From: Eubacteriales bacterium
Lineage (GTDB): Bacteria; Bacillota; Clostridia; Oscillospirales; QAKW01
Direction of reading: 5' to 3'
NCBI GenBank assembly: GCA_045546995.1
Contig: JAZQDW010000067.1
Span: forward strand, 1,864 to 65,863
Length of the DNA stretch: 64,000 bases
Position 1 is the first letter of the stretch. Every line of letters starts with the position of its first letter. Of the stretch, positions 32,778-53,440 are shown piece by piece. A program made the translations under genes and the position numbers. The notes under the pieces were generated by a model, which saw nothing but the letters and a program-made list of their open reading frames with translations, was not told where the DNA came from and did no database searches.

Positions 32778-35700
32778 ATGAAAACAAAGTTATGGCTACG
32801 CAGTATTTCTTGGCTTGTTTGTTTACTGCTGATCACTCAATGCTGTACTTTTGCGGTTTCTGCCGAAACGGAAACTGTAGCCACTGAAGCAACAGAAGAG
32901 CCTGTGCAGATCGAAGGCGAGTTGATCCAAAAGCGCACGGCGAATGAAAAATACTTTATGCGCAGTGACCAAAGTATTCTGGCGGCGGTTTATCCGAATG
33001 CCGTTCATTATAAGGACGTGGATGGCACCTGGAAAGAGATCGACAACCGCTTAACTGAATCCACCGATGGTGCAGAGACGGTATTTTCCAACACCGTCAA
33101 TGCGCTGAACGTCAAATTTGCCAAAAAAGCAAAAGATGGTAAGTTGGTGAAGCTTCATTATGAAGATACCAAAATTGCTTGGTACTTAAATGGCGCCGCC
33201 AAAACCACCGCCACCCCATTGGAAAACGACTGGCCGGAGCAAACGGATCCTACGGCAGTGATTGGCAATCAATCCGCCGTCTTATATGAAAATATTTTAC
33301 CGAAAGTAGATCTGGAATATCTGCTCATCGGTGATGAACTGAAGGAAAATATTGTCTTAAAAGACCGCACGGCCATAGGTACCTACACCTTTACCTATGA
33401 AACGGGCGCGCTTACAATGACCCTTTCCGACAATATGATCACTCTTTGGCAAGGGGATAAGGCGGTTCTGTTTTTGAACGCGCCTCTGATGACCGATGCC
33501 GCCGGCAACACAAGTGATGCCATTACGCTTTCTTTGCGGCCGGAAAAGGAAAACGAAAATAATCACGTTTATACGGTTTCCGTCACCCCCGATGCCGAAT
33601 GGCTGAACGCCGCCAGGCGTGTATATCCCGTCAAGGTGGATCCTTCCCTGACCACCGAGCAGACCTATGAAAACATAATGGACACCTACGTCAGCAAGTT
33701 GGCTCCCGGGTCTAATTATACAGATGAGATCACGTTCCGTGTTGGCAAGGATGCATCCACCAATGATGTCTATCGGGCGTTTCTAAAGTTTGATCTTCCC
33801 ACGGATATCGGCGAAAGCGATCGTGTGGTAAATGCTACCCTAAATCTGTATCCCGATCCACGATTGACCCATCTGGATACCCTGAATGCCATGGCATCAC
33901 AGCGTCCCGTGTTGCAGGCGCACGCCGTCCAAGAGACGTGGGCTACAAACGAGATCACGTGGGGCAATCAACCCGAGACGGACAGCGATATGCTGGATTA
34001 TGAGATCGTTGAGGCCAAAAACGGCTCAGAAGATGCCACCCGTTGGTACGGATGGAATATTACCTCCTTGGTGGATGATTGGTATACCTCCGGTGTCAAT
34101 AACGGTGTGATGCTGAAACTGGATAATGAATCCGGTTATACCGGCAATACGGTTGCCAAATTCTGTTCTTCGGAATTTAATTTGCTGGAAGATGATAATT
34201 CAATCGTATTCCCCTTGGTCAGTATTACCTATCTTAATATGCTGGGTCTGGAGGACTATTGGACGTATCATTCTTTGGATGCCGGCGTGGGCGGTACTGC
34301 CTACGTCAATGATTTTACCGGTGGCCTGACGATCGTGACTCCTGTGGCATCGGTAGACAGCGCTCACACGCCGCTGAACGTGTCGCTGGTCTATTCTCCC
34401 GGCTCTAACGATGCAAGCATCAATGCGCTGAACGTGGGCAATCATTTTATGCTCAATCTGCAGTGCTACGTAAAGCCGGTCACGATCGGCGACGTTCAAA
34501 AATATAAATACGTCGATGGGGACGGCACCACCCACTATTTTGCACAAAAAAATAATAAATGGACGGATGAAAGCGGCCAGGACCTGACCCTATCAATGGG
34601 CGACGGATATTATACCATACGGGATAAAAAAGATAATCTCCTGCGCTTTTATGCAGATACCGGCCGCCTGTGTAATATTAAAGACAGCGTGGGCAATAAT
34701 ACCCAATTGTATTATACGGTGGTGAACGGAAAATACTATCTCTCCTCCGTCACCAACGGTACCCACACCATCACCTTTACCCGTGACAGTAACAACCGTT
34801 TGTCGCGCGTGTATTATCCCGATGCCGACGGAACCAACGATCAGCGCTTTGCACAGATCACCTATACGGCATCTAAAAATGGCATTTACCATTTGACACA
34901 ATATATTCAGCAGGGCACCACATTGACCCCGACCCACATCGTCAGCTTCCCCTGTGATCATAACGTGGTCAGTCGGATCATCAGTTGTCCGTATGATGCA
35001 GATCGGGCAGATGGTGCCGCATTAAGCGGAACGGCATTGATCTTCGGTTATACCAACGAAGGGAATCTGTCTGAGCACCGTCGACGTATCACCTCTTATA
35101 AGATGGTGCCTTACGTAAACGGCACCCTGCAATCCAATCAACCGGAATACCATTATGCGGTCACTTATCATCGCAATGCTACGCGTTTTACCTCTCAAAT
35201 TGCAGGAGATAGCGGTGTATTTAGTAATGAACTCTACACCTTTGATGCATTGGGCAGAACACGCTCGGCCCAGGATCAGGACGGCTATGCCACCTATCAG
35301 GAGCACGGCATCAGCGGTGGCGCCAAGAATAAGGTCACCTTTACCTCCGATACACGCCGCCACGTTGCAAATCTTCTGAAAAATCACAGCTTTGAAAAGG
35401 GCGATGCCACCACCCTGACCCAATGGGCAAAAATCGGCAACAGCGGCGATAATGCAGCCATTAAAGGGACTGCCGATAACGAGCCGGTCTTTGTCGGCAC
35501 AAAGGCAATGAAGGTATATAAAAATGATGCCGCCCAAACCGTCAATTCCTCGGTGCGGCAGGCCATTACGCTGACAAAGGGCAAAAAATATACCCTCTCC
35601 GCCTATGTCTACACCGATTTGACCACCCTTTCCACTTCCGGCTATACCGGCGCATTTTTGTGCGTAGAAACGGCGGATTATTCACCCCAGAGCTATTGTC

Positions 35701-38700
35701 ACAATATTATCAGTGACGGCGCTTGGTCACGCCATTTTGTCACCATCGACCTGACCGGGAACGTGGATATGGCAACCAGTGAAACGTTTTACGTTTATCT
35801 TGGTATTGAGCGAGCAAAGGGTGCGGTATATTTTGACGGTGTCCAACTGGAAGAGGGCGGCTCGGTCAATTCCTATAACCTGATCGAAAACGCCGGCTTT
35901 GAGGACAGCACGGACACCGCCTGGATCGGTACCGAGCTGCAAAGCGGCGATGGCCGCACCACCGATTCCTCCCGTGTGGGATACTTCTATAAAATGGTCG
36001 GCAACAGTAAAACGTCCAAAAAGCTGGCCCGGACCGTCACCGTCAGCGGTAAACAGGGCGATGGCATAACGGCAGGTGCCTTTATTCGCAACTTCGGCCT
36101 GCCCAATAAGGATACCTATCATAACGGCACCAAACAGGATTGTGCCATCACGTTGGAAATTTGCCATTCCGACGGTTCCTCCCAATTTGTCACCCAAAGT
36201 GCGGAAAATGAGGTCGATCATTGGCAATACGTTTGCCTGGGAGCTGTTGCCGAGGAGAATTATACACAGCTTAAACTGTATCTAAAGTTCATTTATAACG
36301 GCAATACCGCATATTTTGATGACGTCGGTCTGTATCGGGACACCTTCGGGCAAAGCCTGACCTACGATGAAAAGGGCAACGTTACCACCGTGGTAGATAT
36401 GGCCAATAATACCAAAAACATCATCACCGACGGTAATAACGATATGACCTCCTATACGGACGGCGAGGGCAACGAGTATACCTTCGAGTATGACGGTGGA
36501 AACAGTGCGACGAAAAAGCATCTGCTGACCAAGGTGACCGATCCTTTGGACGATCAAACGGCATATACGTATGATGCAAAGGGCAACGTTACCAAGACCA
36601 CCTTAACGGATGCGGCGGGTAATATGACGATGTCCGCCTCCACCGCCTATACGGCAGATGGACATTACGTTGCAAGTCAGACGGATGCGGCAGGTATGTC
36701 CATTCGTTATAATCGTTCAACCGTGGACGGACGGGTAAATGACGTTCGTGCACCGTTGCCCGACGGTTATGATCTTAAAACTAGTTATACCTACGATCCG
36801 CTTACCAAGGAGACGGTGGGCGTTGAAGTGGCAACCGATATTCCCTACGGTGGCGAACACCGTTCTTTGCCCGCCAACGTAACCTATGCTTATGACCGTG
36901 GCAATTTGACGGATATCGTCCGTAAGGCTGACACAACCAAGCAGATGGGCTATCATATGACCTACGATAACGTTGGCAAACGCACCGGCGTGTATTGGTC
37001 GGGCAAAACCAACACCCAATCGCTGTTGCAATCCGCCACTTATAAAGATTTTGGTGCAGTGGATACCGTTACCTACGGCAATGGCCAAACCTTGTCTTAT
37101 ACCTACAACAACGCAGGCTTGGTCACTGAAAAGGCATATAATAATACGCCGGTGGTAAAATACGACTACAATGCAAACTATGCCCTCGGTGCCGCCGCCT
37201 ATTATCGCCCGGTCAGCAACACCTGGGAGCGTACCAACTACTTTTATGACCTGGCAGGCCGGATCTCCGAAACTAAGGATACCCGCGGTCTCAGCACCGG
37301 CGCCTATTCGTATGATAAAAACAATCGTCTGCTCTCCTATCGGTCGGTCTTGGAGGATGCCCACGTAGATCTTGGGTATACTACGCGCTATACCTATTTG
37401 GCCGATAACACGCTCAAATCCATCTGTCTGGATCCCGATGGCGGATATGAAAGCGGTACGATGCGGTACGGCTATGATGGGATCGGGCGACTGTATATCA
37501 AGAGATTATCGCTGGATAGTATGGACAATTCTTTCAGAATAGACTATACTTATAAGCAGAATGAGGACGGTTCCCGTACCACCCGACCTTCCACTACCTC
37601 TTACAAGGGTATATACAATGGTACCACCGTGGAGGGTTCGTACTACAGCACCTATTATGACGACGGCAAAATTGCCTCTCATCGGGTCATCGATAACAAC
37701 GGTACAAAAACCACGGCATTTGAATATGATGCATTGGGGCAACTTACTTCCACCGATGACGGCACCGACGAATACACCTATTCCTACGATGCCGGTGGCA
37801 ACCTCACCGCAAAAACCTTCACCACTTCGGCAGATGACAGCGATTATACTGCCACCTATACCTACGACAGCAACTTTTCCGACCTGTTGACCGGATATGC
37901 CAAAACCGAGGACGGTGTCACCACCACCCGCACCTATAATTATACTGCGAGCAATGGTACCAAATTTGTCAATCCCGTTTCCATTACCGAAACCAACGGC
38001 ACCACCAGCAGTGTGATGCAGCTTGGTTGGCGGCAGGGCCGGACGTTGGAAAGCATTACCACCGATGCCGGTACCGTTCGCTATGAGTACAATGAAAACG
38101 GTCAGCGTATTTTGCGACAACTGGTCAACGGCGCCAAACGGGAATACTATTACAACGGCACGCAGTTGGAGTATATCAAGATCCTTACGGCGGCGGGTAA
38201 CCTGACAAGCACGATGCGTTATATTTATAATGCAAACGGTCAGGCGGAATATATTCTGTACATTACCAAAGGCAATGCAAAAACTCCCGCGGCCTACAAC
38301 CTGTACTACATTCTGCGAGATAACACGGGCGTGATCCAAAAGCTCATCAAGGTGCGCGCGGCAAGTTCTACCTCTGTCACCCCCACCTTGTCCGTGGCAG
38401 TGGAATATAAGTACGACCCCTACGGTAAGCTTCTGTCTATCACCAAGGCCAGCGGCGAGAGCGTTGGCACCTACAACCCCCTCGTTTATAAGGACTATAT
38501 CTGGGACAGCGAGACTGATTGGTACTACTGCAACAGCCGTTATTACGATCCCGAAACGGGCAGATGGATCAATGCGGATGCATATTTAACTACGGAACAA
38601 AGTATTACCGATACCAATATGTTTTTGTATTGCGGAAATAATCCTGTTCTTTTTGAAGATGCTAGTGGAAATAGGTACGCTGTTTCCGCTTCGCAAATAG

Positions 38701-39188
38701 AAGACGAAACATGGGAGGAGAGAGGCTATTCATGTGATCATATGAATAAGCAAAGTGGTCGTGGGCTCAATCCATCCCACAGAGAAGAACTTCCGACAGG
38801 AGAACGACTCATATATTATACAGTTGGAAACAGCAAGGTTGTTACACCGAAATCTTTAGGAAAAAATACAATTATTATCAAGGATGTGAGAAATAATAGC
38901 CTTGACCCAGGAAATGCAAATATGCAAATTGTAGATTCGTACAAATACACTCGTCGTCAAAATGAATTAAGGATTAATATTCTTAATAGTATGCTACATT
39001 ATTGCCAAAGAGTTCCAAATTCCGGTAATGGATGGATTAGAAGTGTTCCATCGATGCTGTGGGAGTGGGATTTGCACAATTTGGCACACGACTTGTATCT
39101 TAAGCGATCAAGTAGCGGAAGCGTTGATCTTGATAATAAATCAGAAGATTGGGGGATCATTCAACATATATGGTACGCAATTTCTTGA
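32778..39188 (+). CDS. Rhs/YD-repeat polymorphic toxin, Sec-signal, WapA-like (2136 aa)
   Basis: Signal peptide MKTKLWLRSISWLVCLLLITQCCTFAVSA. DNRLRE-like and two CBM-like regions. Many YD repeats (YxYDxxGN/R). Core end ...RYYDPETGRWINAD...LYCGNNPVLFEDASG, followed by a 170-aa unassigned AT-rich tip. Confidence 0.9.
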   Translation: MKTKLWLRSISWLVCLLLITQCCTFAVSAETETVATEATEEPVQIEGELIQKRTANEKYFMRSDQSILAAVYPNAVHYKDVDGTWKEIDNRLTESTDGAETVFSNTVNALNVKFAKKAKDGKLVKLHYEDTKIAWYLNGAAKTTATPLENDWPEQTDPTAVIGNQSAVLYENILPKVDLEYLLIGDELKENIVLKDRTAIGTYTFTYETGALTMTLSDNMITLWQGDKAVLFLNAPLMTDAAGNTSDAITLSLRPEKENENNHVYTVSVTPDAEWLNAARRVYPVKVDPSLTTEQTYENIMDTYVSKLAPGSNYTDEITFRVGKDASTNDVYRAFLKFDLPTDIGESDRVVNATLNLYPDPRLTHLDTLNAMASQRPVLQAHAVQETWATNEITWGNQPETDSDMLDYEIVEAKNGSEDATRWYGWNITSLVDDWYTSGVNNGVMLKLDNESGYTGNTVAKFCSSEFNLLEDDNSIVFPLVSITYLNMLGLEDYWTYHSLDAGVGGTAYVNDFTGGLTIVTPVASVDSAHTPLNVSLVYSPGSNDASINALNVGNHFMLNLQCYVKPVTIGDVQKYKYVDGDGTTHYFAQKNNKWTDESGQDLTLSMGDGYYTIRDKKDNLLRFYADTGRLCNIKDSVGNNTQLYYTVVNGKYYLSSVTNGTHTITFTRDSNNRLSRVYYPDADGTNDQRFAQITYTASKNGIYHLTQYIQQGTTLTPTHIVSFPCDHNVVSRIISCPYDADRADGAALSGTALIFGYTNEGNLSEHRRRITSYKMVPYVNGTLQSNQPEYHYAVTYHRNATRFTSQIAGDSGVFSNELYTFDALGRTRSAQDQDGYATYQEHGISGGAKNKVTFTSDTRRHVANLLKNHSFEKGDATTLTQWAKIGNSGDNAAIKGTADNEPVFVGTKAMKVYKNDAAQTVNSSVRQAITLTKGKKYTLSAYVYTDLTTLSTSGYTGAFLCVETADYSPQSYCHNIISDGAWSRHFVTIDLTGNVDMATSETFYVYLGIERAKGAVYFDGVQLEEGGSVNSYNLIENAGFEDSTDTAWIGTELQSGDGRTTDSSRVGYFYKMVGNSKTSKKLARTVTVSGKQGDGITAGAFIRNFGLPNKDTYHNGTKQDCAITLEICHSDGSSQFVTQSAENEVDHWQYVCLGAVAEENYTQLKLYLKFIYNGNTAYFDDVGLYRDTFGQSLTYDEKGNVTTVVDMANNTKNIITDGNNDMTSYTDGEGNEYTFEYDGGNSATKKHLLTKVTDPLDDQTAYTYDAKGNVTKTTLTDAAGNMTMSASTAYTADGHYVASQTDAAGMSIRYNRSTVDGRVNDVRAPLPDGYDLKTSYTYDPLTKETVGVEVATDIPYGGEHRSLPANVTYAYDRGNLTDIVRKADTTKQMGYHMTYDNVGKRTGVYWSGKTNTQSLLQSATYKDFGAVDTVTYGNGQTLSYTYNNAGLVTEKAYNNTPVVKYDYNANYALGAAAYYRPVSNTWERTNYFYDLAGRISETKDTRGLSTGAYSYDKNNRLLSYRSVLEDAHVDLGYTTRYTYLADNTLKSICLDPDGGYESGTMRYGYDGIGRLYIKRLSLDSMDNSFRIDYTYKQNEDGSRTTRPSTTSYKGIYNGTTVEGSYYSTYYDDGKIASHRVIDNNGTKTTAFEYDALGQLTSTDDGTDEYTYSYDAGGNLTAKTFTTSADDSDYTATYTYDSNFSDLLTGYAKTEDGVTTTRTYNYTASNGTKFVNPVSITETNGTTSSVMQLGWRQGRTLESITTDAGTVRYEYNENGQRILRQLVNGAKREYYYNGTQLEYIKILTAAGNLTSTMRYIYNANGQAEYILYITKGNAKTPAAYNLYYILRDNTGVIQKLIKVRAASSTSVTPTLSVAVEYKYDPYGKLLSITKASGESVGTYNPLVYKDYIWDSETDWYYCNSRYYDPETGRWINADAYLTTEQSITDTNMFLYCGNNPVLFEDASGNRYAVSASQIEDETWEERGYSCDHMNKQSGRGLNPSHREELPTGERLIYYTVGNSKVVTPKSLGKNTIIIKDVRNNSLDPGNANMQIVDSYKYTRRQNELRINILNSMLHYCQRVPNSGNGWIRSVPSMLWEWDLHNLAHDLYLKRSSSGSVDLDNKSEDWGIIQHIWYAIS

Positions 39189-39994
39189 AAACCGCGTTTT
39201 CGGCGGTCAACATTATTTTGTATATAGTACTGATGCTTCCATTGATAGCATTTCCGATCCTTTTGTTCTTTCCCTATATATTTGAAGCAAACCTGTACTT
39301 TTCAACCATCTATTACTATCTGCTATCAGGACAGATCGAACTCTTTTTGCTTTTGGTTATTTTACTGCTGTTCTTTTTTATAAAAATCATTCGTCGGGAA
39401 AAAGTTTATTATTTATTCTCATCGCTGTTGCTGATAGCAAATTGCATTTTTGACGTTTTGACTTGGAACAAACCATTGCACGCGGTTGGAATTATCGTCA
39501 AACTGTTGATTGCGATCTCATTTTTTGTTGAAGGATGGAGGGCGCGCGGAGATTATTTCTCAAAGCACAGGAAAAACTTGCGTTTTTCTGTTTGTTGGGG
39601 TAGTGTGTTGTTTTTTGCCGGCTTTTTGCAATATATGTTGCTGAAATTTGAGCAAGGTCCCATTCTCATTTTTGCGGTCGCCATCTTATTTGTTGTCGGA
39701 CAAGCAATTTGGTTCATCTGTCAGCACATGTCCGCAAGGGATGTTGGTTACATTTGGCTTGGCTCGACATTTGTATGGGGGCTCCTTTCTTCTTGGTTAT
39801 CGTTGCTGCTGTATAAGCCGTTTCCATATTGGTTTGATGTTTCCGAAGATTATATGAATGAAAAATTTTGGCCGTTTTTTGTTTTCCAAATCCTTCATTT
39901 GGTAACAATGGGCATTGTGTGGTGCATCAAGGCAAGAGGCGGTTCTAAGAAAACAGAAAGAAATAACACAGGGGACGATTCTCTTGTCTCCTGA
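39170..39994 (+). CDS. polytopic membrane protein, putative cognate immunity protein
   Basis: Overlaps the rhs stop by 19 nt. AT-rich like the toxin tip. About 8 hydrophobic segments. Start choice uncertain (TTG 39149, ATG 39170 or ATG 39233). Confidence 0.55.
   Translation: MVRNFLKTAFSAVNIILYIVLMLPLIAFPILLFFPYIFEANLYFSTIYYYLLSGQIELFLLLVILLLFFFIKIIRREKVYYLFSSLLLIANCIFDVLTWNKPLHAVGIIVKLLIAISFFVEGWRARGDYFSKHRKNLRFSVCWGSVLFFAGFLQYMLLKFEQGPILIFAVAILFVVGQAIWFICQHMSARDVGYIWLGSTFVWGLLSSWLSLLLYKPFPYWFDVSEDYMNEKFWPFFVFQILHLVTMGIVWCIKARGGSKKTERNNTGDDSLVS
39967..39991 (+). repeat. REP-like element (degenerate core GGGGACGATTCT, mixed arms)
   Basis: cacaGGGGACGATTCTcttgtctcc. Supplies the last codons and the stop of the immunity gene. 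Confidence 0.7.
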
Positions 39995-40052
39995 CCTGTT
40001 GACCGGCTATGCTAAAACCGAGGGCGGTGTCACCCCCACCTTGTCCGTGGCA
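39993..40052 (+). pseudogene. orphan rhs fragment A
   Basis: Matches rhs 37881..37922 joined to 38382..38399 at a shared GTCACC, equivalent to an in-frame 459-bp deletion. Ends at a REP-like element. Confidence 0.8.
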
Positions 40053-40063
40053 AATTGCAAGGG

Positions 40064-40088
40064 AACACAGGGGACGGTTCTGTGTGTT
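40064..40088 (+). repeat. REP-like element, stem version 2 (ACACAG/CTGTGT)
   Basis: aacacagGGGACGGTTCTgtgtgtt. Confidence 0.8.
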
Positions 40089-40089
40089 G

Positions 40090-40249
40090 ACGGGCGTGAT
40101 CCAAAAGCTCATCAAGGTGCGGGCGGCAAGCTCTACCTCGGTCACCCCCACCTTGTCCGTGGCGGTGGAATATAAGTACGACCCCTACGGTAAGCTTCTG
40201 TCTATCACCAAGGCCAGCGGCGAGAGTGTGGGCACCTACAACCCCCTCG
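40090..40249 (+). pseudogene. orphan rhs fragment B
   Basis: 160 bp matching rhs 38325..38484 with 6 mismatches by hand alignment. Homology stops exactly at the next REP-like element. Confidence 0.85.
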
Positions 40250-40281
40250 GGGGGGACAAGGGGACGGTTCTCTTGTCCCCC
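40249..40281 (+). repeat. REP-like element, stem version 1 (GGGGGACAAG/CTTGTCCCCC)
   Basis: gggggggacaagGGGACGGTTCTcttgtccccc. Confidence 0.85.
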
Positions 40282-40330
40282 GGCTCCTTAACAAACGGAA
40301 ATACAACAAATAGCTTTGGTGTAAAATTGC

Positions 40331-40368
40331 AACACAGGGGACCAACACAGGGGACGGTTCTATGTGTT
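40331..40368 (+). repeat. REP-like element, version 2, with a partial 5' duplication
   Basis: aacacaggggacc then aacacagGGGACGGTTCTatgtgtt. The 3' flank runs into the -35 of the RAYT-like gene. Confidence 0.8.
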
Positions 40369-40395
40369 GACGATTTTAGTTTGCTATGTTACAAT
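40367..40395 (+). promoter_or_regulatory. candidate promoter of the RAYT-like gene 1
   Basis: TTGACG, 17-nt spacer, TACAAT, with TGt extended -10. The -35 overlaps the end of the REP-like element. Confidence 0.55.
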
Positions 40396-40412
40396 CAAAT
40401 TGGTGATGCGAT

Positions 40413-41159
40413 ATGCCAAGACAGGCGAGACAGAAAAGCGAAAGCAGAATCTACCATGTAATGCTTCGCGGAATCAATCAACAACAAATTTTTGAGGATT
40501 CAGAAGATTATGATAAGTTCCTCAATATTATGAAAGACTGTAAGGCAATATGCGAATTTAAGCTATTTGCATATTGCCTTATGAGAAATCATATTCATTT
40601 ACTTATTAAAGAGTGCAAAGAGCCGTTGGAACAAATATTTAAACGAATCTGCGGACGATTTGTATACTGGTATAATATCAAGTACCGACGTACAGGCCAC
40701 TTGTTTCAGGATCGTTTTAAAAGCGAGCCGGTGGATTCGGAGAAGTATTTCTTCACCGTACTGCGCTATATCCACCAAAACCCTACCAAGGCAGGTATTT
40801 GTAAGTGTGTTGAGGACTATGCCTACAGCAGTTATTCGGAATATACTGGTATAAGCAGACTTGTTGACACAGAATATGTTTGGGCACTGACTACGCTTGA
40901 AGATTTTGTTGGCCTTAATCATGAAACAGTTGACACGCCCTGTTTGGATGTTTCCGAGAAAGTCATTGCGCGCGTAACGGACGAACAAGCAAGAGCAATC
41001 ATCAAAAAGATCGCGCGGTGTGACAACGTTTCGGATTTCCAAAACTTAGATCTTGTGACCAGGGATAAATGTTTGAAAAAGTTTAGAGACAAAGGAATTT
41101 CAATCAGACAGCTAAGCAGATTAACGGGCATCAGTTTTAGTATTGTGAGAAAATTCTAA
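40413..41159 (+). CDS. RAYT-type (IS200-like Y1/HUH) transposase-like protein with C-terminal HTH
   Basis: HUH motif NHIHLLI. Tyr motif LRYIHQNP. GHLFQDRFKS. C-terminal GISIRQLSRLTGIS helix-turn-helix. Confidence 0.8.
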   Translation: MPRQARQKSESRIYHVMLRGINQQQIFEDSEDYDKFLNIMKDCKAICEFKLFAYCLMRNHIHLLIKECKEPLEQIFKRICGRFVYWYNIKYRRTGHLFQDRFKSEPVDSEKYFFTVLRYIHQNPTKAGICKCVEDYAYSSYSEYTGISRLVDTEYVWALTTLEDFVGLNHETVDTPCLDVSEKVIARVTDEQARAIIKKIARCDNVSDFQNLDLVTRDKCLKKFRDKGISIRQLSRLTGISFSIVRKF

Positions 41160-41160
41160 T

Positions 41161-41216
41161 CACACACAGAACCGTCCCCTGTGTTCTATCACACACAGAA
41201 CCGTCCCCTGTGTTCT
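41161..41216 (-). repeat. two tandem REP-like elements (version 2) inverted relative to the upstream copies
   Basis: cacacacAGAACCGTCCCCtgtgttct repeated with a 29-bp period, starting 2 nt after the RAYT stop. Confidence 0.85.
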
Positions 41217-41399
41217 AATATTAACTGTTCTGTTAATCCAAGGTATCATCTGTATAATTCGGTTTTTCAAAAAGTAAATAATAGGTAGGATACAGAGGAT
41301 GGCTTCCAGATTGGCAACTCGTAATCTCAACAACAAAAATAGGGACGATTCTCCATTAAAAAGGAACTTTTATGTGACAATCAAGGAACGGACAATCAA

Positions 41400-41461
41400 G
41401 GGACAGTTCTTTGCCTCGGAAAAACTTAAACAGGGGGACAAGGGGACGGTTTTCTTGTCTC
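41400..41461 (+). repeat. direct-repeat copy 1 (gggacagttctttgcctcggaaaaacttaaacaggg) fused to a version-1 REP-like element
   Basis: 36-nt block repeated at 42577..42612 with 1 mismatch. REP gggggacaagGGGACGGTTTTcttgtctc at 41433..41461. Confidence 0.75.
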
Positions 41462-41480
41462 GAACAAAGGAGATGTTGCT

Positions 41481-42566
41481 ATGATAAAAAAACGAATGGT
41501 CTGCATATGTGCTATTATGTTGCTGTTGTTTTCTTCTTGTGGAAGCACAAATATAGTAGATCGTTTTGCCGAAACGGAACTGACAAAAGAAATCGCACAA
41601 ACCATTGTGCATTCTTTTAATTCTGCTCAGATTGATCAACCTTTTTCAACATCAGATGTTGTTCCCTATGAAATGGCATTTAAGTATTTTCGTTATTTTG
41701 GATTTTATAATGAAAAGGGTGAAATGCGCCCACAAGTGGTTTCATATCAAGATGGCTTGAAATACAAGGTGCCACGCAAAGTGGTGGATACGTATTTGAG
41801 TTCAAAGTTTAATACGACTCCAAGCGCCAAAAGCATTTCATGCTATGATGCACAGAGCGACTCTTATGTGATCGCACCCGTAGACAGTTATGCCGGAAAA
41901 ATAACGATTGATTCCATTGATAAGCTGGATAACAACCAATATCAAATCCACGCAACTGTGCAAGATGAACCGACAGAAACTCTTTTTTCTTTTGAGCAAA
42001 CGTTTACAATTGAGTATAACGGGTCATTTAAGTTTTTATCCTTTGAAGAAAAAGAGAAGGCATTTCAAGAGTTGACGGCAGAGGAACAAAAACTTTTATC
42101 GTATATTAATGATTATTATTTCTTTGATACACGTCAGTATTATGATGAAGATCACAAGATTCCTTATGACGTTGCTTTTAAGTGTTTTGCCATCTACGGT
42201 TTTTGGGATAACAATGGGGCTCTGCGCAAGGAATTAAAGCAGTATGCCACCGGAAATGAATACGAAGATCCATATAATATTCCTGCGAAAATAGTAGATG
42301 ACTTTGTCGCTTCAAGGTTTGACGTAGAGATAGATCGATCCAATATTGAAAATTACAATAAAGAAAGCGACTCATATCTCATTCTACCGAACGCTGCAGA
42401 TGGGCACGATTTTGCAGAATTGATAAGTTATGAACGTTCCGGAAACATCTATAGGATTATTGTAAATCAGCGGAATTGGTTAGATCCGAATTTGGTTGAA
42501 AAGCAAATGTTTCGTCTTGAAATAAATGACGAGAACTGCAAATATCTTGCTTTTACCAAGATTTGA
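41481..42566 (+). CDS. lipoprotein with internal two-fold duplication, function unknown (possible orphan immunity protein)
   Basis: Lipobox LLLFSSCGS. Two ~170-aa repeats (PYEMAFKYFRYFGFYNEKGEMR... and PYDVAFKCFAIYGFWDNNGALR...). AT-rich. Confidence 0.65.
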   Translation: MIKKRMVCICAIMLLLFSSCGSTNIVDRFAETELTKEIAQTIVHSFNSAQIDQPFSTSDVVPYEMAFKYFRYFGFYNEKGEMRPQVVSYQDGLKYKVPRKVVDTYLSSKFNTTPSAKSISCYDAQSDSYVIAPVDSYAGKITIDSIDKLDNNQYQIHATVQDEPTETLFSFEQTFTIEYNGSFKFLSFEEKEKAFQELTAEEQKLLSYINDYYFFDTRQYYDEDHKIPYDVAFKCFAIYGFWDNNGALRKELKQYATGNEYEDPYNIPAKIVDDFVASRFDVEIDRSNIENYNKESDSYLILPNAADGHDFAELISYERSGNIYRIIVNQRNWLDPNLVEKQMFRLEINDENCKYLAFTKI

Positions 42567-42572
42567 AAGAGA

Positions 42573-42639
42573 CAATGGGACAGTTCTTTGCCTCGGGAAA
42601 ACTTAAACAGGGCGGGAGATTTTCTCCCGCCCTGTTTTT
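42573..42639 (+). repeat. direct-repeat copy 2 plus terminator hairpin; left copy of the nested inverted repeat (partner 50712..50782)
   Basis: gggacagttctttgcctcgggaaaacttaaaCAGGGCGGGAGAttttTCTCCCGCCCTGttttt. The hairpin works as a bidirectional terminator for the lipoprotein and nitroreductase genes. Confidence 0.8.
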
Positions 42640-43165
42640 ATTTATAGCTGACAAGTTCGTCCAGGGATTTGCGCTTTTTGGGGCGAAGCTTGTCTCCCTC
42701 GGCGGCGTAGCCTAACGTGATGACCAACCGCACCGGCGTGTTCAGATCGCAGGCCGTGCGGATCTTTTGATCGTCAAACCAGCCGAGGATACAGGTGGAC
42801 AAGCCCTGCGCCGTTGCCTCGGCGGTAAGATAGGCACTGAGAATGCCGATATCAATGGAACGGTAATCGTTCCCCTTGAGTTTGGCCCCAACGGCGGCTG
42901 TGCGCACGTAGGGGCGTTCGCTGATAACGATCAGTACGGGGGCTTTGGCGGCAAATTTATTCATTCCCATACCCATAGTAGCGCCGGCCACGGTACGGGC
43001 AGTATCACCGGTACATACTGTTATATGATAGGGCTGACCGTTGCAGGCAGAGGGAGCAAGGCGCGCCGCCTGCAGCACCGCCTCCAGCTTGTCCTGTTCC
43101 ACCGACCGATCGGCATCATAAGCGCGGCAGGACTGCCGCAGACGTGCGATCTCTGAAAAATTCAT
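42638..43165 (-). CDS. nitroreductase family protein
   Basis: RQSCRAY...APSACNGQP motif. Confidence 0.8.
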   Translation of the reverse strand: MNFSEIARLRQSCRAYDADRSVEQDKLEAVLQAARLAPSACNGQPYHITVCTGDTARTVAGATMGMGMNKFAAKAPVLIVISERPYVRTAAVGAKLKGNDYRSIDIGILSAYLTAEATAQGLSTCILGWFDDQKIRTACDLNTPVRLVITLGYAAEGDKLRPKKRKSLDELVSYK

Positions 43166-44031
43166 AGTTCTTTCTCCTTTCGGGCGGCGATAAATGCCGT
43201 AATTTCTTCGAGTCGGCGTTTGCCTTCCGCCACACCCTCGTCATACACGCGCTGCAGGACGGCCGGGTCGTGCTCGATATGCCCGATCTGCAGGGGCGCA
43301 GACGGACGAATGACCAAAGCCTTCCCTGCCCTCTCCAGCGTTTCGATATAAGCAAGAGTTTCGTTATACACCGTATGGCGCTGTTGCATCGCCCGAACAA
43401 TGCCGGGATGCTTTCGCAACAGCAGGCGCATCAACGGCACCAGCTTGTTGGGTTTTTTACGGTATCCGTCGGGTCGGGTCAAGATGATGATATTATGCCC
43501 ATATCCCCGCTCCTCCAAAAACCGAATGGGAATAGAATCGGCAATACCGCCGTCCAGATACGTCCTTCCTTCCAGTTTGACCGGCGTGGATACCAACGGC
43601 ATCGAGGCAGAAGCACGCATCCATTCCAGCCCTTCCCGATCGCTACGCTCCAGCTTACGGTAGGTCGGCGCACCGCTGATCGTTTCGGTGCAGACCACGT
43701 AAAATTCGGTGGGATCGGCGGCAAAGGCATCGTTATCAAAGGGATCCAGCGTTTCGGGCAGCTCCCGATAGCAAAAATCTGCGCCGTACAAGTCCCCTGT
43801 TTTGATCAACGAGCGAAAGCTGCAAAACCGTGGGTCCTTACAATATTTTTTATTATAACGCAGTACCCGACCGATCTGTCGAGATTTATAATTACATCCA
43901 AAGGCCGCCCCTGCCGAAACGCCCACAATGGCATCCACCGACAGGCCTGCCGTCAGCATTACGTCCAGCACACCGGCCGTAAACAGACCGCGCATGGCGC
44001 CGCCTTCCAAAACCATACCTGTTTTCATCAT
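43162..44031 (-). CDS. patatin-like phospholipase
   Basis: GGAMRG oxyanion motif and GVSAG nucleophile elbow. Confidence 0.85.
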   Translation of the reverse strand: MMKTGMVLEGGAMRGLFTAGVLDVMLTAGLSVDAIVGVSAGAAFGCNYKSRQIGRVLRYNKKYCKDPRFCSFRSLIKTGDLYGADFCYRELPETLDPFDNDAFAADPTEFYVVCTETISGAPTYRKLERSDREGLEWMRASASMPLVSTPVKLEGRTYLDGGIADSIPIRFLEERGYGHNIIILTRPDGYRKKPNKLVPLMRLLLRKHPGIVRAMQQRHTVYNETLAYIETLERAGKALVIRPSAPLQIGHIEHDPAVLQRVYDEGVAEGKRRLEEITAFIAARKEKEL

Positions 44032-45767
44032 TCTTCTGCGATCAGATCATTATCACGGAATTGCAGAGCGTATAGATCCTTATACGTTCCGCCGGCTGCC
44101 ATCAATTCCTCGTGGGTGCCCCGTTGGGTGATCTTTCCGTCAACTACCACGGCGATCTCGTCCGCATTGCGGATGGTGGACAGACGATGGGCGACCACCA
44201 GAGTGGTACGGCCCTTACACAACTCATCGAGCGCCTGCTGGATCAATACCTCGGTGGTATTATCCAGCGCGCTGGTGGCCTCGTCCAAAATCAAAATGGC
44301 CGGATCCTTCAAAAACACGCGAGCGATGCTCAACCGTTGCTTTTGACCGCCGGAAAGCTTTACGCCACGTTCACCGATCTCGGTATCATAGCCGTTTTCC
44401 AGCGTCATCACGTAATCGTGAATTTTGGCCTGTTTGGCGGCGGTGATCATCTCCTCCTCGGTGGCGTCGGGGCGACCGTACATAATGTTCTCCCGAATGG
44501 TGCCCACAAACAAAAATACGTCCTGCTGTACGATGCCGATATTCCGCCGCACCGAATCCAGCGTCAGTTTGCGCAGGTCGGTGCCGTCAATGCAGATACT
44601 GCCGCCATCCTCCCCGAGCTGATAAAAGTTGGGCAAAAGATGGCACAGGGTGGTTTTACCGCCGCCCGAGGGGCCGACCAACGCCAGCTTACGGCCGGGG
44701 GCCAGATGCAGATCAATATGATGCAGTACCTCATTTTCCTCTTCATAGGCGTAGCAAACGTCCTTGAATTCGATCTCACCACGGACGTTTTCCAACGGTA
44801 TCGCATCGGGAGCATCCTGCTCGGCCGGCTCCTCCATGACCTCCACAAAGCGTTTAAAGCCGCTGACACCGTTTTGAAATTGCTCCATGAAGCCGATAAG
44901 GGTAGTCACGGGGTTGATAAACAAATTGACCGATACGATAAAGGTGGAATAATCACCGAAGGAGATCCGTCCGGCGTAGAGAAACAGGCCGCCGGCAATC
45001 AGAATAAACACGTTAAATACGTCGGTCACAAAGGTGGTGGAGGAATGAAACTTCGCCATGGCGTGATACGCCCGACGGGAGGAATCCACAAATTCCTCAT
45101 CCCCCACCCCGAATTTTTCGATTTCACGCTCGGCATTGGTATAGGCCTTCGTCACGCGGATGCCGGTGACACTGCTTTCCACCGCCGCATTGATGGTGGC
45201 ATTGCTTTTGCGCCGATCATCAAAGGCCAGGCGCATTGCCTTGCGATAATGCATAGTCACCGCCATCAAAATGGGCACGCAGGTGAAGATGATCAGCGTC
45301 AATATCCAATCAATGGACATCAGATAGGCAAAGGACAGCACGATCATCACCGTACAGATCAGCAGATTTTCCGGGCCGTGATGCGCCAGTTCGCACACCT
45401 CGAACAGATCGCTGGTGATACGGGTCATAATTCGTCCCGTTTCGTTTTGATCGTAAAAGCGGAACGGCAGTCTTTCCAGATGGGCAAACAGATCCTTCCG
45501 CATCTGCGACTGCATCCGTACGCCGATGACGTGGCCATAATATTGCACAAAATACCGCAAAAACATCCGCACCACGTACAGCGCCAGCACGATAACGCCG
45601 GCAATAACGATAGTGGTATACATCTTTTGCGGGATATATTCATTGAGCATCTTATTGGTGACGATGGGATAGACCATACCGATCACCGAGATCATCAGCG
45701 CCGCCAGCATATCGAATATCAGCATTTTAATATGCGGTTTATAGTAGGCGATAAAACGTTTAAGCAT
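44028..45767 (-). CDS. ABC transporter, fused permease/ATPase (MsbA-like exporter)
   Basis: 6-TM N-domain. Walker A GPSGGGKTT, LSGGQKQR, ILILDEATSALD. ATG 45767 after AGGAGG. Confidence 0.9.
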   Translation of the reverse strand: MLKRFIAYYKPHIKMLIFDMLAALMISVIGMVYPIVTNKMLNEYIPQKMYTTIVIAGVIVLALYVVRMFLRYFVQYYGHVIGVRMQSQMRKDLFAHLERLPFRFYDQNETGRIMTRITSDLFEVCELAHHGPENLLICTVMIVLSFAYLMSIDWILTLIIFTCVPILMAVTMHYRKAMRLAFDDRRKSNATINAAVESSVTGIRVTKAYTNAEREIEKFGVGDEEFVDSSRRAYHAMAKFHSSTTFVTDVFNVFILIAGGLFLYAGRISFGDYSTFIVSVNLFINPVTTLIGFMEQFQNGVSGFKRFVEVMEEPAEQDAPDAIPLENVRGEIEFKDVCYAYEEENEVLHHIDLHLAPGRKLALVGPSGGGKTTLCHLLPNFYQLGEDGGSICIDGTDLRKLTLDSVRRNIGIVQQDVFLFVGTIRENIMYGRPDATEEEMITAAKQAKIHDYVMTLENGYDTEIGERGVKLSGGQKQRLSIARVFLKDPAILILDEATSALDNTTEVLIQQALDELCKGRTTLVVAHRLSTIRNADEIAVVVDGKITQRGTHEELMAAGGTYKDLYALQFRDNDLIAEE

Positions 45768-46041
45768 CTGATTCCTCCTGTCTTGTTCATTGATCACGTC
45801 GATTTATTCTTATAAGTTAATTATAAAAAAATTATAACATATTGCGCAAAAGTTTTGCAATAAAAAGTAGGCAAAGCGCACTTAAAAAAAGAAAGCCAAC
45901 AGCCGTCGTATCTCATCAAGGTGCAAGAGGGTTTATGCACGGCTATGCCGTGATGATATGCGGGGCCTGCGGCTTGGATAAAAAAAGAACAGCTAAACGG
46001 TGCGTAAAGCATGATAAGAAAAGCGATTAGGTGCGTAAATC

Positions 46042-46518
46042 CTATCTTTGATTGAATGTAGATAACTCCTCACACTTGGGATATCTTTTCAGATAGCCAT
46101 CTATGATAGCCTTATCCCTACTAATAATGAGAGTCCACGAACTGTCACAAGGGACAATTTCTACAGAGGAAAGCGGATGTTGGAGAGATACTGGATTTTG
46201 ATAATACCCATTATAATCTTCGGCAGACGGCAATGGATATTTTAAGACTTCTTCAACTGTGATATTTTTAGGAAAACCGCAAAAACATCCCCAAATCCAT
46301 TGAAAATCCTCTTGTTCAATTATAGCAGATAATTCATCACCCGAAAACCAACAATACTCTTGATCAAGCAGTTTTTTGATATCCTTATTCCGTGGATAAC
46401 ATACACCATCCGTAATAAGCCAATTATATTGCAGTTGTGCATTGTTAATTGCCTGAAAAACCTTGCTCATATAAGTGTAGTATTTATGATTTCTCCTATC
46501 AACAATGCCATATGTCAT
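46042..46518 (-). CDS. hypothetical protein (158 aa), AT-rich islet
   Basis: ATG overlaps the stop of the upstream four-helix-bundle gene (ATGA). No motif assigned with confidence (possibly DUF2691-like, from memory). Confidence 0.55.
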   Translation of the reverse strand: MTYGIVDRRNHKYYTYMSKVFQAINNAQLQYNWLITDGVCYPRNKDIKKLLDQEYCWFSGDELSAIIEQEDFQWIWGCFCGFPKNITVEEVLKYPLPSAEDYNGYYQNPVSLQHPLSSVEIVPCDSSWTLIISRDKAIIDGYLKRYPKCEELSTFNQR

Positions 46519-46868: not shown

Positions 46869-46923
46869 AATATACACCTCGCTTTTCAATATTATATCGC
46901 ATAATTGGATTGTTTGTAAATAA

Positions 46924-47052: not shown

Positions 47053-47053
47053 G

Positions 47054-47096
47054 CAAAGAAACCTGATTTGTCTGGTAGACAAATCAGGTTTCTTTG
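47054..47096. other. 20-bp perfect-stem hairpin abutting the tRNA-Val(GAC) 3' end
   Basis: CAAAGAAACCTGATTTGTCT ggt AGACAAATCAGGTTTCTTTG. Confidence 0.7.
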
Positions 47097-50711: not shown

Positions 50712-50782
50712 CAAAAACAGGGCGGGAGAAAATCTCCCGCCCCGTTTAAGTTTTTCTAAGTCAGAGAACCGTCCCCTGATTG
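50712..50782 (-). repeat. right copy of the nested inverted repeat (hairpin plus aaaacttaaac block plus REP-like core)
   Basis: Its reverse complement caatcaGGGGACGGTTCTctgacttagaaaaacttaaacggggcgggagattttctcccgccctgttttt aligns to 42573..42639. The 42-nt inner block has 2 mismatches. Confidence 0.8.
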
Positions 50783-51306
50783 CCCTTGATCAACTGTTGA
50801 ATTATAGTTTCCTCTTGTGATCCCATAGATAACTGCGTAATATCTTTTATACTAATATAACTCTTGCCGTCTTCGTTTCCATCAACATCAAATTGTTTTA
50901 TAACACAGATATCATGTAGTACAGAATCGACTTTACCAATAACATCCCATTCGCCACTGCTAAGCAATTCCAAAGATACAAGTTGTTTTTTATTTTGAGC
51001 AAAATTCAACAACGACATTAAAGCATTTTCTTGAAATTCTATATCAATCTCAGGCAAAGCTTTTGTTTGCATCAATTTCTGCATTCGTTGATTGTAACAA
51101 CTATCAAGTTCTATACGAAAAACATCTCCAACACTTTTGAGCATAATGCCATCATAATTTCCGTCCGGTAGCAGAAGATACATAACAAACCACTCTGCAT
51201 CTACATACAGCACTTTGCCAAATAAAAATTTGGAGGTGTTATACCCGTTTGTGTATACCGAAGCAAAAATGTTTTTATCACGAATCTCTTTTAAAGTAAT
51301 CAACAT
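50761..51306 (-). CDS. hypothetical cytoplasmic protein (181 aa), possible orphan immunity protein
   Basis: AAGGAGA SD 7 nt upstream. AT-rich. The last 7 codons and the stop lie in a REP-like element. Confidence 0.6.
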   Translation of the reverse strand: MLITLKEIRDKNIFASVYTNGYNTSKFLFGKVLYVDAEWFVMYLLLPDGNYDGIMLKSVGDVFRIELDSCYNQRMQKLMQTKALPEIDIEFQENALMSLLNFAQNKKQLVSLELLSSGEWDVIGKVDSVLHDICVIKQFDVDGNEDGKSYISIKDITQLSMGSQEETIIQQLIKGNQGTVL

Positions 51307-51340: not shown

Positions 51341-51400
51341 GCAAGGGACAAGGGAGGGACAAGAGGACAGAGGGACAAGGGGACGGTTCTCTTGTCCCCC
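51341..51400 (+). repeat. REP-like element (version 1) with an iterated GGGACAAG 5' arm
   Basis: gcaagggacaagggagggacaagaggacagagggacaagGGGACGGTTCTcttgtccccc. Confidence 0.8.
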
Positions 51401-51513: not shown

Positions 51514-51545
51514 GGGGAGACAAGGGGACGGTTCTCTTGTCTCCT
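51514..51545 (+). repeat. REP-like element (version 1)
   Basis: ggggagacaagGGGACGGTTCTcttgtctcc followed by T7. Lies 5 nt from the RAYT-like gene 2 stop. Confidence 0.85.
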
Positions 51546-51549
51546 TTTT

Positions 51550-52293
51550 TTAAATGTTTGATTCTACAATTTTCTTAGAAATACCAGTTAATCGAGCAAT
51601 TTGCCTTATCGATAAACCTTTGTTATGCAATTTGCTAATATAGAAATTACGTTTTTCTTTATCAAGTTTTTGAAAATCTGCTGCTGTCTTACATTTTGTG
51701 CTTTTCAATATAATCGTTTTTGCTTCAGCATCTGTCAAGCGATAATGTTCATCCATTTCTAAACAATTATCCGCATTTTCTTCTCTGTGATACTCAATAA
51801 ATTGATCCTTCGTAATCATCGAAAGAGCAAAACTTGTATCAACAAAAACCGGAGTTCCTAAATATTCTTTTATGCTACTGTTGGCGTATTCCTCTGCCTT
51901 TATGCATATCCCTGCCTTCACAGGATTCTGATGAATATACCGCAACACCGTGAGAAAATAGCTATCATCCTCAACAGGTTCACTCTTGAATCGATCCTGA
52001 AACAAATGTCCACAGCGGTGATATTTCCAGTTATACCAATAAACATAACTCCCGGCAATTCGTTTAAATATGGCGCTTAATTCTTCTGCGCCTTCTCGCA
52101 ACAGAATATGTATATGATTCCCCATCAAGCAATACGCATATACTGTATATCCGCATAATTCCTTATATAGGGCAAGTGTTTCAACAAATCTTTGACAATC
52201 TTCTCCATCCTCAAATATCTGTTGACGATTGATTCCTCTCAATATTATGTGGTATATTCCACTATCGCTCTTTTTTCGTGCTTGACGTGGCAT
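51550..52293 (-). CDS. RAYT-type (IS200-like Y1/HUH) transposase-like protein with C-terminal HTH, diverged paralog
   Basis: NHIHILL, LRYIHQNP, GHLFQDRFKS, GLSIRQIARLTGIS. N-terminal domain about 64% identical to the 40413..41159 product by hand alignment, C-terminal part lower. Confidence 0.8.
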   Translation of the reverse strand: MPRQARKKSDSGIYHIILRGINRQQIFEDGEDCQRFVETLALYKELCGYTVYAYCLMGNHIHILLREGAEELSAIFKRIAGSYVYWYNWKYHRCGHLFQDRFKSEPVEDDSYFLTVLRYIHQNPVKAGICIKAEEYANSSIKEYLGTPVFVDTSFALSMITKDQFIEYHREENADNCLEMDEHYRLTDAEAKTIILKSTKCKTAADFQKLDKEKRNFYISKLHNKGLSIRQIARLTGISKKIVESNI

Positions 52294-52310
52294 AACTATC
52301 ACCCAATTTG

Positions 52311-52339: not shown

Positions 52340-52345
52340 GAAAAA

Positions 52346-52435
52346 GGGGACAAGAGAACCGTCCCCTTGTCTCCCAGAGAACCGTCCCCTTGTCTCCCGA
52401 GAAAAAGGGGACAAGAGAACCGTCCCCTTGTCTCC
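52346..52435 (-). repeat. three REP-like elements (version 1) in inverted orientation
   Basis: Complement cores AGAACCGTCCCC at 52355, 52378 and 52416. On the minus strand two of them read as hairpin plus T5. Confidence 0.85.
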
Positions 52436-52662
52436 TAAATATAATAGTCCCCTTGCGTTGTTTTGACAATCAATCGGGAATCTGTTGTGAATTTAGCAAC
52501 GCTCGGTTGCACCATATCGGAGAAACGCGAAACGTGCTCTCCCGTTTTTTTGTCATATAAATTCGCGCTGCCGCCGCAACAACAAAAATATTTCTCATTA
52601 TGCGCGATGTGATATGATTTCTTGAAAGTAAATAGAATCTCTTTTTTATCAATCACTTTCAT
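52435..52662 (-). CDS. 75-aa ORF, probably a truncated gene remnant
   Basis: AAGGAGG upstream (a GTG at 52656 is better spaced). The ORF ends exactly at the REP cluster boundary. No motif recognised. Confidence 0.35.
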   Translation of the reverse strand: MKVIDKKEILFTFKKSYHIAHNEKYFCCCGGSANLYDKKTGEHVSRFSDMVQPSVAKFTTDSRLIVKTTQGDYYI

Positions 52663-52711
52663 TCCCTCCTTACCATAATCCGCCCATTTGTATATCCCAT
52701 TTTACAAATCA

Positions 52712-52723
52712 TGGGACGGTTCC
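52712..52723 (+). repeat. degenerate REP-like core
   Basis: tGGGACGGTTCC followed by ctgattg (compare 50777..50783). Confidence 0.5.
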
Positions 52724-52737
52724 CTGATTGACTCCTG

Positions 52738-53388: not shown

Positions 53389-53402
53389 TTCTTTTCTCCT
53401 CA

Positions 53403-53429
53403 GAGACAAGGGGACGGTTCTCTTGTCCC
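53403..53429 (+). repeat. REP-like element (version 1) between the right leader and the first gene
   Basis: gagacaagGGGACGGTTCTcttgtccc. Confidence 0.85.
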
Positions 53430-53440
53430 ATAATAAAAAC

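Follow-up and report, generated by a model that had tools for sequence, protein, structure and literature searches.

The window analysed here is a 64,000-nt stretch of contig JAZQDW010000067.1 from a Eubacteriales genome assembly (GCA_045546995.1), and the closest named homologues are in metagenome-assembled genomes (MAGs) of Oscillospiraceae and Ruminococcaceae. A preliminary description of this DNA had drawn attention to short hairpins resembling repetitive extragenic palindromes (REPs). Among these hairpins lie two genes for Y1/HUH nucleases of the RAYT type, here named A and B, which were absent from that description. Both genes are intact, and their products share 53% identity.

In an alignment of 46 homologous sequences, H60, H62, Y119 and N123-P124 are invariant. 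A search of PDB sequences returned 4er8, the TnpAREP of Escherichia coli, as the sole match, and the AlphaFold2 model of the gene A product (pLDDT 87.5) also had TnpAREP (4er8_A) as its top Foldseek match (E=1.6e-8, TM 0.80), followed by the transposases of ISDra2, IS608 and IS200. The C-terminal extension of approximately 100 aa folds as helices, with a pLDDT of 91 over the last 63 aa. Against Pfam, this extension gave only sub-threshold matches to the helix-turn-helix (HTH) families HTH_7, HTH_23 and HTH_38, and Foldseek found no significant neighbour for it, with the ParB HTH and DnaA domain IV at TM 0.51-0.56 and E>1. The gene is rare on plasmids (28/72,556 records) and phages (one record), as is typical of RAYTs (PMC5581495).

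The exact core of the hairpins, GGGACGGTT, occurs 13 times in the window, always inside 40071-53419, compared with a chance expectation of 2x64000/4^9 = 0.5 (our own arithmetic, assuming uniform composition). When up to one mismatch is allowed there are 32 matches, compared with 14.0±3.8 in shuffled sequence, and 0/100 shuffles reach 32. The one-mismatch 9-mers beyond 39.9-53.5 kb have flanks without complementarity, a point that counts in favour of chance or sequence composition as the source of the pattern. A covariance model trained on 148 copies, mostly foreign and including two from the window, returned 16 window matches with E<=0.025, of which 13 had E<1e-5 and the best reached 2e-10; calibration was short and the E-values are rough. 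All 16 are in 39962-53431 and are strand-specific, and the model found no copies in the remaining 50 kb of the window. The hairpin repeats are thus real, and their local density, 16 copies in 14 kb, can be set beside the 10 copies in 8 kb seen in one foreign stretch (L063).

Three stem versions are present, V1 (GAGACAAG/CTTGTCTC), V2 (ACACAG/CTGTGT) and V3 (CAATCAG/CTGATTG). The layout of V1 copies is GGGACAAG-GGGACGGTTCT-CTTGTCCC and that of V2 copies is ACACAG-GGGACGGTT-CTGTGT. Aligned on the core, all three fall into a single register, in which a nearly invariant G comes before the 11-nt loop GGGACGGTTCT, and because V2 contains a CA/TG repeat its loop can be read as either 9 or 13 nt. In the V1 copies at 53402, 52346 (minus strand) and 52407 (minus strand), GAGAC on the left faces GTCCC on the right, leaving an A.C mismatch. 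The preliminary description had recognised V1 and V2 but was mistaken in counting only two versions, as V3 is found at 52703-52733 and 50755-50785 (minus strand) and its left arm recurs at 41390. The V1 copies that it placed at 40252-40279, 51372-51398 and 53405-53429 were confirmed in the sequence. Its V2 copies at 40066-40086, at 40346-40366 and twice in 41161-41216 were also found, except that the 40346 copy has a mismatched arm, CTATGT, and the pair in 41161-41216 is on the minus strand.

Each gene is bracketed by its own stem version in the arrangement '-> gene <-'. Gene A has a coding-strand V2 copy 62 nt before its ATG and two V2 copies in the opposite orientation just past its stop, while gene B has two full and one partial V1 copies upstream and a single inverted V1 copy downstream. 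A third Y1 gene was looked for in the window and none was found, so V3 has no partner there. The best promoter-like sites of the region, TTGACG-17-TACAAT for gene A (40367-40395) and TTGACA-17-TATTAT for gene B (52339-52311), start either at the right arm of the nearer upstream hairpin or a few bases past it. In gene A, the right arm of the upstream V2 copy runs into the -35 box. GC skew was too flat around 36-52 kb to tie the orientation of the copies to the direction of replication.

It had been proposed that the loop stays constant while both arms change together, and that a larger copy set in which the arms varied independently would speak against this. We obtained such a set by scanning one genome per species for AGGGGACGGTTCTNT, a pattern that leaves stem positions 3-8 free but dictates position 2 in one or more copies of each stretch. 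At least 120 genome stretches were returned. Among the matches listed, most are from Clostridia (Acutalibacteraceae, Lachnospiraceae, Oscillospiraceae and Syntrophomonas), with others from Bacilli, Negativicutes, Atribacterota, Aminicenantes, Omnitrophota, Bacteroidales and Actinomycetota; some lone AGGGGACGGTTCTNT matches without complementary arms are probably due to chance. Complete genomes with the motif include those of Neobacillus sp. PS3-12 (NZ_CP133268.1) and Sporomusa malonica DSM 5090 (NZ_CP155572.1). These stretches contain at least 268 GGGACGGTTC cores with at least 113 different left arms (stem positions 3-7).

In 272 unique copies, Watson-Crick pairing at stem positions 2-7 was 59-80% in the register with the 11-nt loop and at most 53% in four shifted registers, and mutual information at positions 3-7 was 0.32-0.63 bit. 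The number of paired positions was 3.88, compared with 1.94±0.07 when right arms were permuted. The covariation score, calculated from an ungapped alignment with one sequence per distinct arm, was 0.495, as against 0.203±0.014 after shuffling (0/500 reached the observed value) and at most 0.198 with slid partners, and 308 cells were changed on both sides, compared with 152±12 in shuffles. At least five of the six possible Watson-Crick pairs at positions 3-8 were present in 111 of 268 foreign copies among the matches listed, where permutation predicts 8.6. The arms are therefore not independent; they vary together, and compensatory pairing of the 113 or more arms around the constant loop is far above that in shuffles. 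The excess of cores over the 0.5 expected, the covariance model E-values down to 2e-10 and these well-paired foreign copies together refute chance or composition, to which we give practically no weight as the origin of the repeats.

Where neighbouring cores are within 150 nt of each other, 44 pairs are convergent, one is divergent and 55 are tandem (among the matches listed). In four stretches (L085, L070, L080 and L079) we observed head-to-head dimers in which two cores pair with each other in one long perfect palindrome, for example GGGACGGTTCTGTTCGCGAACAGAACCGTCCC, and the core is not in a loop.

The association of gene and repeat extends to other genomes. Seven of eight genome stretches with a gene A homologue show '-> gene <-' on locus-specific arms, one of them from Atribacterota (L072), and the exception is a Saccharibacteria contig (L114) with a single copy on one side. 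In a Prevotella stretch (L078), inverted copies are found only 3' of the gene. A further 80 metagenome loci were picked by protein similarity alone (45-62% identity). The core, with up to one mismatch, is on both sides as '-> gene <-' in 31 of these and on one side in 14, and many of the others are without flanking sequence. Upstream and downstream arms agree at 5.94/8 bases within a locus but only 2.94/8 between loci. Thirty-four REPtrons carry 22 arm types, and the distance of the upstream core from the ATG is 61-75 nt in most of them. At two loci (L075 and L129), homologues are flanked by arms of the V3 type. More distant homologues keep GGGGAC and vary the 3' half of the loop (for example GGGGACGGGGTTG or GGGGACAGGTA), in agreement with the GGGGWSAS motif published for TIRYT flanks (PMC3733652). 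At loci that lack the exact core, where GGGACGGTGGTT is a further example of a related loop, the arms are again complementary and often end in TTGACA, and four homologues (L182, L188, L192 and L200) carry GGGGACAG. Of the 66 loci with enough upstream sequence, 49 have GGGAC in the interval 40-90 nt before the ATG.

When proteins with loop types GGGACGGTTC and GGGACGGGGTT were compared, differences were seen in the Y1 domain (residues 76, 77 and 96) and in the HTH helix (235, 241 and 242), but this search for specificity-determining residues is confounded by phylogeny. Elsewhere, in a Clostridiales MAG (L043, 4449-4563 and 5711-5783), the gene is situated between arrays of 21-nt units made up of an arm and the loop, six on one side and four on the other, an organisation like that of bacterial interspersed mosaic elements (BIMEs). 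Most homologue contigs (P0002-P0120 and L121-L200) are only 0.8-3 kb long and hold approximately the gene and its flanking hairpins, which suggests that assemblies break at the hairpin repeats.

Folded as single-stranded DNA (ssDNA), V1 hairpins have energies of -9 to -12 kcal/mol (z = -3.5 to -5) and V3 -5.5 kcal/mol. The alternative GGGGAC/GTCCCC fold noted earlier is real in V1, where it is approximately 5 kcal/mol weaker than the main fold (-5.7 vs -10.9), and does not form in V2 (0 kcal/mol). Two mutually exclusive hairpins are thus a property of V1 and are not common to the other versions. The copy at 39962-39992 does join a V2 left arm to a V1 right arm, but the earlier statement that it cannot pair was wrong, as it folds as CAGGGGAC/GTCTCCTG (-5.5 kcal/mol, z = -2.9) using the alternative GGGGAC/GTCCCC register. 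The suggestion that this copy is a recombinant fits well, because there are further arm-swapped copies at 41390, 42567 and 50755, which have a common tail, AAAAACTTAAAC, but different left arms. The arm-swapped copies hint at exchange at or in the loop.

Stutters of left-arm fragments, or of an arm plus part of the loop, were also observed directly 5' of full hairpins at 51342-51371, 40331-40342 and 52376-52398 (minus strand). The same pattern is seen in many other genomes, and the breaks lie at various points between the left arm's end and that of the loop. An attempt to derive a cleavage site from the breakpoints was abandoned, as this spread includes no single site.

We consider it likely that the hairpins are the cognate repeats of two RAYT-type Y1/HUH ssDNA nucleases, in a REPtron- or TIRtron-like organisation where the loop and not a GTAG foot is the sequence determinant. 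Recognition of structure together with loop sequence, as at REP/RAYT and IS200/IS605 ends, had been anticipated in the preliminary description and was supported by every indirect test that we ran. Two Y1/HUH genes lie among the copies, each bracketed by its own stem version, and in other phyla this loop, on different stems, borders homologous genes; both facts argue for a system of the REP/RAYT type. Pairing of the arms in ssDNA would expose the conserved 11-13 nt loop, (G)GGGACGGTTCT. The Y1 domain, itself conserved, would bind one strand, read this loop base-specifically, and cut and rejoin DNA in or beside it. A stem that needs only to pair could drift by compensatory change and become specific to one paralogue. 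Solo and tandem copies, and copies with swapped arms, occur in the intergenic DNA around the genes, and the repeats may be mobile. As the upstream copy overlaps the -35 box, binding to it, possibly via the C-terminal HTH-like domain, would occlude the promoter and autoregulate the gene. It is also possible, although we hold this only tentatively and think it doubtful, that the loop is the site of cleavage and strand exchange in addition to recognition, in which case a relative of Y1 transposases would be using a Rep-origin architecture. Arms would be exchanged between families when recombination took place within the loop, which would explain the chimeras at 39962, 41390, 42567 and 50755 and the partial copies that end in the loop.

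Several observations weigh against assigning the hairpins to the two nucleases in this way. Both proteins fall short of the 80-bit cutoff of the NCBIfam equivalog model NF047646 (REP_Tyr_transpos), with scores of 75.8 bits for A and 67.9 bits for B. The window copies are clustered within 14 kb around the genes and are not dispersed. The V2 hairpins are weak, at about -4 kcal/mol with z of about -1 to -2. Across the 272 copies there is neither a GT[AG]G foot nor a conserved base beyond stem position 8, and none of the window copies has GTAG directly before the hairpin. In three foreign stretches (L070, L085 and L080) the core forms part of a long, perfect palindrome or of an inverted repeat that is not self-complementary. 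The many different breakpoints of the partial copies fail to define a unique cleavage site. Finally, G.T and A.C stem mismatches are equally frequent in the 272 copies, so nothing marks one strand as functional.

The last observation would also suit repeats that act only as double-stranded DNA. They would then be terminal inverted repeats (TIRs) or operators. The C-terminal HTH-like domain would bind them, perhaps dimerised so that each arm serves as a half-site, and they would mainly regulate the gene, with the hairpin a by-product of a palindromic binding site. The fixed distance of the upstream copy from the ATG and its overlap with the -35 box point the same way, as do the extra helical C-terminal domain with its weak HTH matches, the position in the HTH helix as well as the Y1 domain of the residues that differ between loop types, and the published description of the flanks as TIRs (PMC3733652). 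However, there are solo copies far from any RAYT promoter and tandem arm-plus-loop arrays without a right arm, and it is the asymmetric 11-nt centre that is invariant while the putative half-sites vary. The family to which the catalytic domain belongs acts on ssDNA hairpins (4er8, 2vjv, 2xm3). We therefore regard a role confined to duplex DNA as unlikely, but duplex binding and recognition of the hairpins by the nucleases may well coexist.

A function in RNA, as intrinsic terminators or stabilisers of transcript 3' ends, was also considered, as three V1 copies by gene B are followed by T runs and were reported by a simple terminator scan, and two degenerate copies are placed directly after stop codons and before real terminators. 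However, a loop of 11-13 nt is outside the range for intrinsic terminators (a GC-rich stem, a 3-8 nt loop and a U run immediately 3'), and T runs are confined to the V1 copies beside gene B, with none after V2 or V3 copies. The hairpins do not keep one orientation towards the neighbouring genes, G.U-compatible mismatches are not in excess on either strand, and an Rfam search of the window returned no family at the hairpins. Terminators also need no invariant loop sequence, and an RNA function appears very improbable.

The positions of the genes and of all the repeat copies are listed in Table 1.

Table 1. RAYT-type genes and hairpin repeats in the window (CM, covariance model score; fold, ssDNA folding energy)
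Feature	Position	Strand	Evidence
Gene A, RAYT-type Y1/HUH nuclease, 248 aa; HUH = H60-I-H62, Y119 in YIHQNP, C-terminal helical HTH-like domain	40413..41159	+	Pfam Y1_Tnp E=9e-14
Gene B, RAYT-type, 250-aa open reading frame (ORF), likely start ATG at 52293	51550..52302	-	Pfam Y1_Tnp E about 1e-13
V2 hairpin upstream of gene A, core 62 nt before ATG	40341..40371	+	CM 36.2 bits
Incomplete V2 copy made up of the left arm and GGGAC, immediately 5' to the complete upstream hairpin	40331..40342	+	sequence
Two tandem V2 hairpins 3' of gene A, inverted relative to the upstream copy	41159..41217	-	identical 29-nt units; CM 25.9, 32.9 bits
V1 hairpin just 3' of gene B, inverted relative to the gene, then T run	51515..51545	+	CM 37.3 bits; 95-97% complementary to upstream copies
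Upstream of gene B: V1 (52345-52375), partial copy without right arm (52376-52398), V1 (52406-52436)	52345..52436	-	CM 35.6, 18.6, 36.5 bits
Solo V1 hairpin, begins exactly at end of rhs homology	40251..40281	+	CM 36.0 bits; fold -11.8 kcal/mol, z = -3.5
Solo V2 hairpin	40061..40091	+	CM 35.4 bits; fold -4.2 kcal/mol, z = -1.1
Copy with swapped arms (V2 on the left, V1 on the right) and loop GGGACGATTCT; overlaps stop of ORF 39149-39994	39962..39992	+	CM 17.9 bits
Arm-swapped degenerate copy: V3 left arm, loop GGGACAGTTCT, tail TTGCCTCGG-AAAAACTTAAAC	41390..41420	+	CM 14.2 bits; direct and inverted repeats
Solo V1 hairpin, loop GGGACGGTTTT	41433..41463	+	CM 25.8 bits
Degenerate V1-like copy, tail common to 41390 copy, intrinsic terminator (42605-42637)	42567..42637	+	CM only 9.9 bits; one arm of 63-nt inverted repeat, 89% complementary
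V3-like copy CAATCAG-GGGACGGTTCT-CTGACTT, tail common to 41390 copy, terminator; overlaps stop of ORF 50761-51306	50713..50785	-	CM 28.9 bits; other arm of 63-nt inverted repeat
Left-arm fragment stutter (51342-51371), then solo V1 hairpin (51370-51400)	51342..51400	+	CM 35.9 bits
Solo V3 hairpin AATCAt-GGGACGGTTCC-cTGATT	52703..52733	+	CM 25.9 bits; fold -5.5 kcal/mol, z = -2.5
Solo V1 hairpin	53401..53431	+	CM 35.5 bits

The hairpins at the left end of the cluster are interleaved with fragments of rhs. An ORF of 2151 aa for an Rhs/YD-repeat toxin occupies 32733-39188 (plus strand), and pieces of its 3' part recur at 39993-40052 and 40090-40249. One fragment is 96% identical to 38325-38484 and another joins 37881-37928 to 38375-38399 via a 13-nt microhomology, and the rhs homology stops exactly at the start of a V1 copy (40250). 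A 63-nt inverted repeat (42577-42639 and 50713-50775, 89% complementary), made up of a degenerate hairpin, the tail AAAACTTAAAC and an intrinsic terminator, encloses 8 kb of housekeeping-type genes that include an ABC transporter, four tRNAs, a dus-like gene and a methyltransferase. Both RAYT genes are outside this inverted repeat and face inwards. ORFs 39149-39994 and 50761-51306 take their final codons and their stop from the hairpins at 39962-39994 and 50755-50785, respectively, and the second of these ORFs had no homologue besides itself among 5.8 billion proteins. The four tRNA genes are at 47101-47572 (minus strand), and a Gut-1 RNA (Rfam RF01706, 59 bits) at 57638-57708 (minus strand) suggests a gut-associated organism.

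Judged by architecture and not by the authors' profiles, proteins A and B would fit TnpAY1 subclass 2.1, also known as TIRYT or RAYT Group 1. This is among the largest groups of domesticated HUH nucleases, and we know of no DNA substrate or function for it. The hairpin with an invariant loop, (G)GGGACGGTTCT, and a freely covarying stem of 6-9 bp is a candidate substrate, and it accompanies genes of this kind in several phyla, among them Bacillota, Atribacterota and Bacteroidota. With two paralogues and two stems, a single locus offers natural specificity pairs with which loop recognition could be told apart from stem recognition, and it appears that REP-like systems can place the sequence determinant in the loop instead of a GTAG foot. 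Were the loop indeed the site of cutting and exchange, this would be a mechanistically distinct class of REP and the long-missing substrate of subclass 2.1, in about 15% of strains. As the repeats seem to break metagenome assemblies and create spurious ORFs, the covariance model would aid annotation of gut and rumen Clostridia.

Subclass 2.1 is the second-largest TnpAY1 subclass and includes 291/292 'RAYT Group 1' sequences (PMC6006769; PMC5581495). TIRYT genes were described as having flanking inverted repeats that contain GGGGWSAS, some of them self-complementary, and that are moderately repeated (Di Nocera 2013, PMC3733652), and for subclass 2.1 neither automatic nor manual searches gave REP-like sequences (Quentin 2018, PMC6006769). 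The genes in our window resemble these in their Y1/HUH core with class-2 Y---NP, their approximately 100-aa C-terminal extension, which may be HTH-like, their position between inverted repeats with a G-rich motif, their wide and patchy taxonomic spread that includes Clostridia, and their rarity on plasmids. The window loop GGGGACGG agrees with the published motif, GGGG[AT][CG]A[CG], at 7/8 positions, with G for A at position 7, and the GGGGACAG of relatives agrees at 8/8. They differ in that the published flanks are TIRs that are only sometimes 'partly or wholly self-complementary', whereas here there is a hairpin with the motif in its loop and more than 100 covarying arm versions. The protein family and the G-rich flanks are already known. 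The papers searched did not include the hairpin-loop motif with its more than 100 covarying arm versions or the loop GGGACGGTTCT common to several phyla. Nor did they include side-by-side paralogues with their own stems, the overlap with the -35 box, the '-> gene <-' rule or the 44:1 bias towards convergent doublets. A literature search for the motif on either strand yielded only unrelated primer coincidences, the later RAYT, REPIN and TIRYT literature contained nothing on this hairpin class, and the supplements of Quentin et al. contained no such hairpin.

The closest solved protein is TnpAREP of E. coli (RAYT Group 2; 4ER8), and canonical REP/BIME systems also have a gene between inverted palindromic repeats, extragenic solo copies and a separate repeat family for each paralogue. 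In these, TnpAREP reads a GT[AG]G foot and the loop is reported to be only structural (PMC8266576, PMC3479197). Here there is no 5' GTAG foot and the determinant appears to be in a large loop, and A and B have an extra C-terminal domain and score below the NCBIfam equivalog cutoff. The small REPs of Group 3 RAYTs from Stenotrophomonas maltophilia and Marinomonas are alike in their perfect short stems, and some of their loop bases are essential for cleavage (Corneloup 2021, PMC8266576). However, one or two loop positions and GTAG are involved there, while in our hairpins GTAG is missing and conservation across phyla extends over the entire loop of 11-13 nt. The IS200/IS605 transposases (IS608, ISDra2) share the Y1 fold and recognise subterminal ssDNA hairpins. 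Their ends are on the same strand and have a 5' guide tetranucleotide, whereas the copies here are inverted with no conserved guide, and genes A and B, at 53% identity, are not identical or near-identical copies of one element. In the origins of rolling-circle replicons, a conserved nonanucleotide in the loop of a variable stem is nicked by an HUH enzyme, the Rep protein. Rep is not Y1 transposase-like, and the window has no replicon and no sign of a nick in the loop, but an invariant loop, a freely varying stem and an HUH nuclease are common to both.

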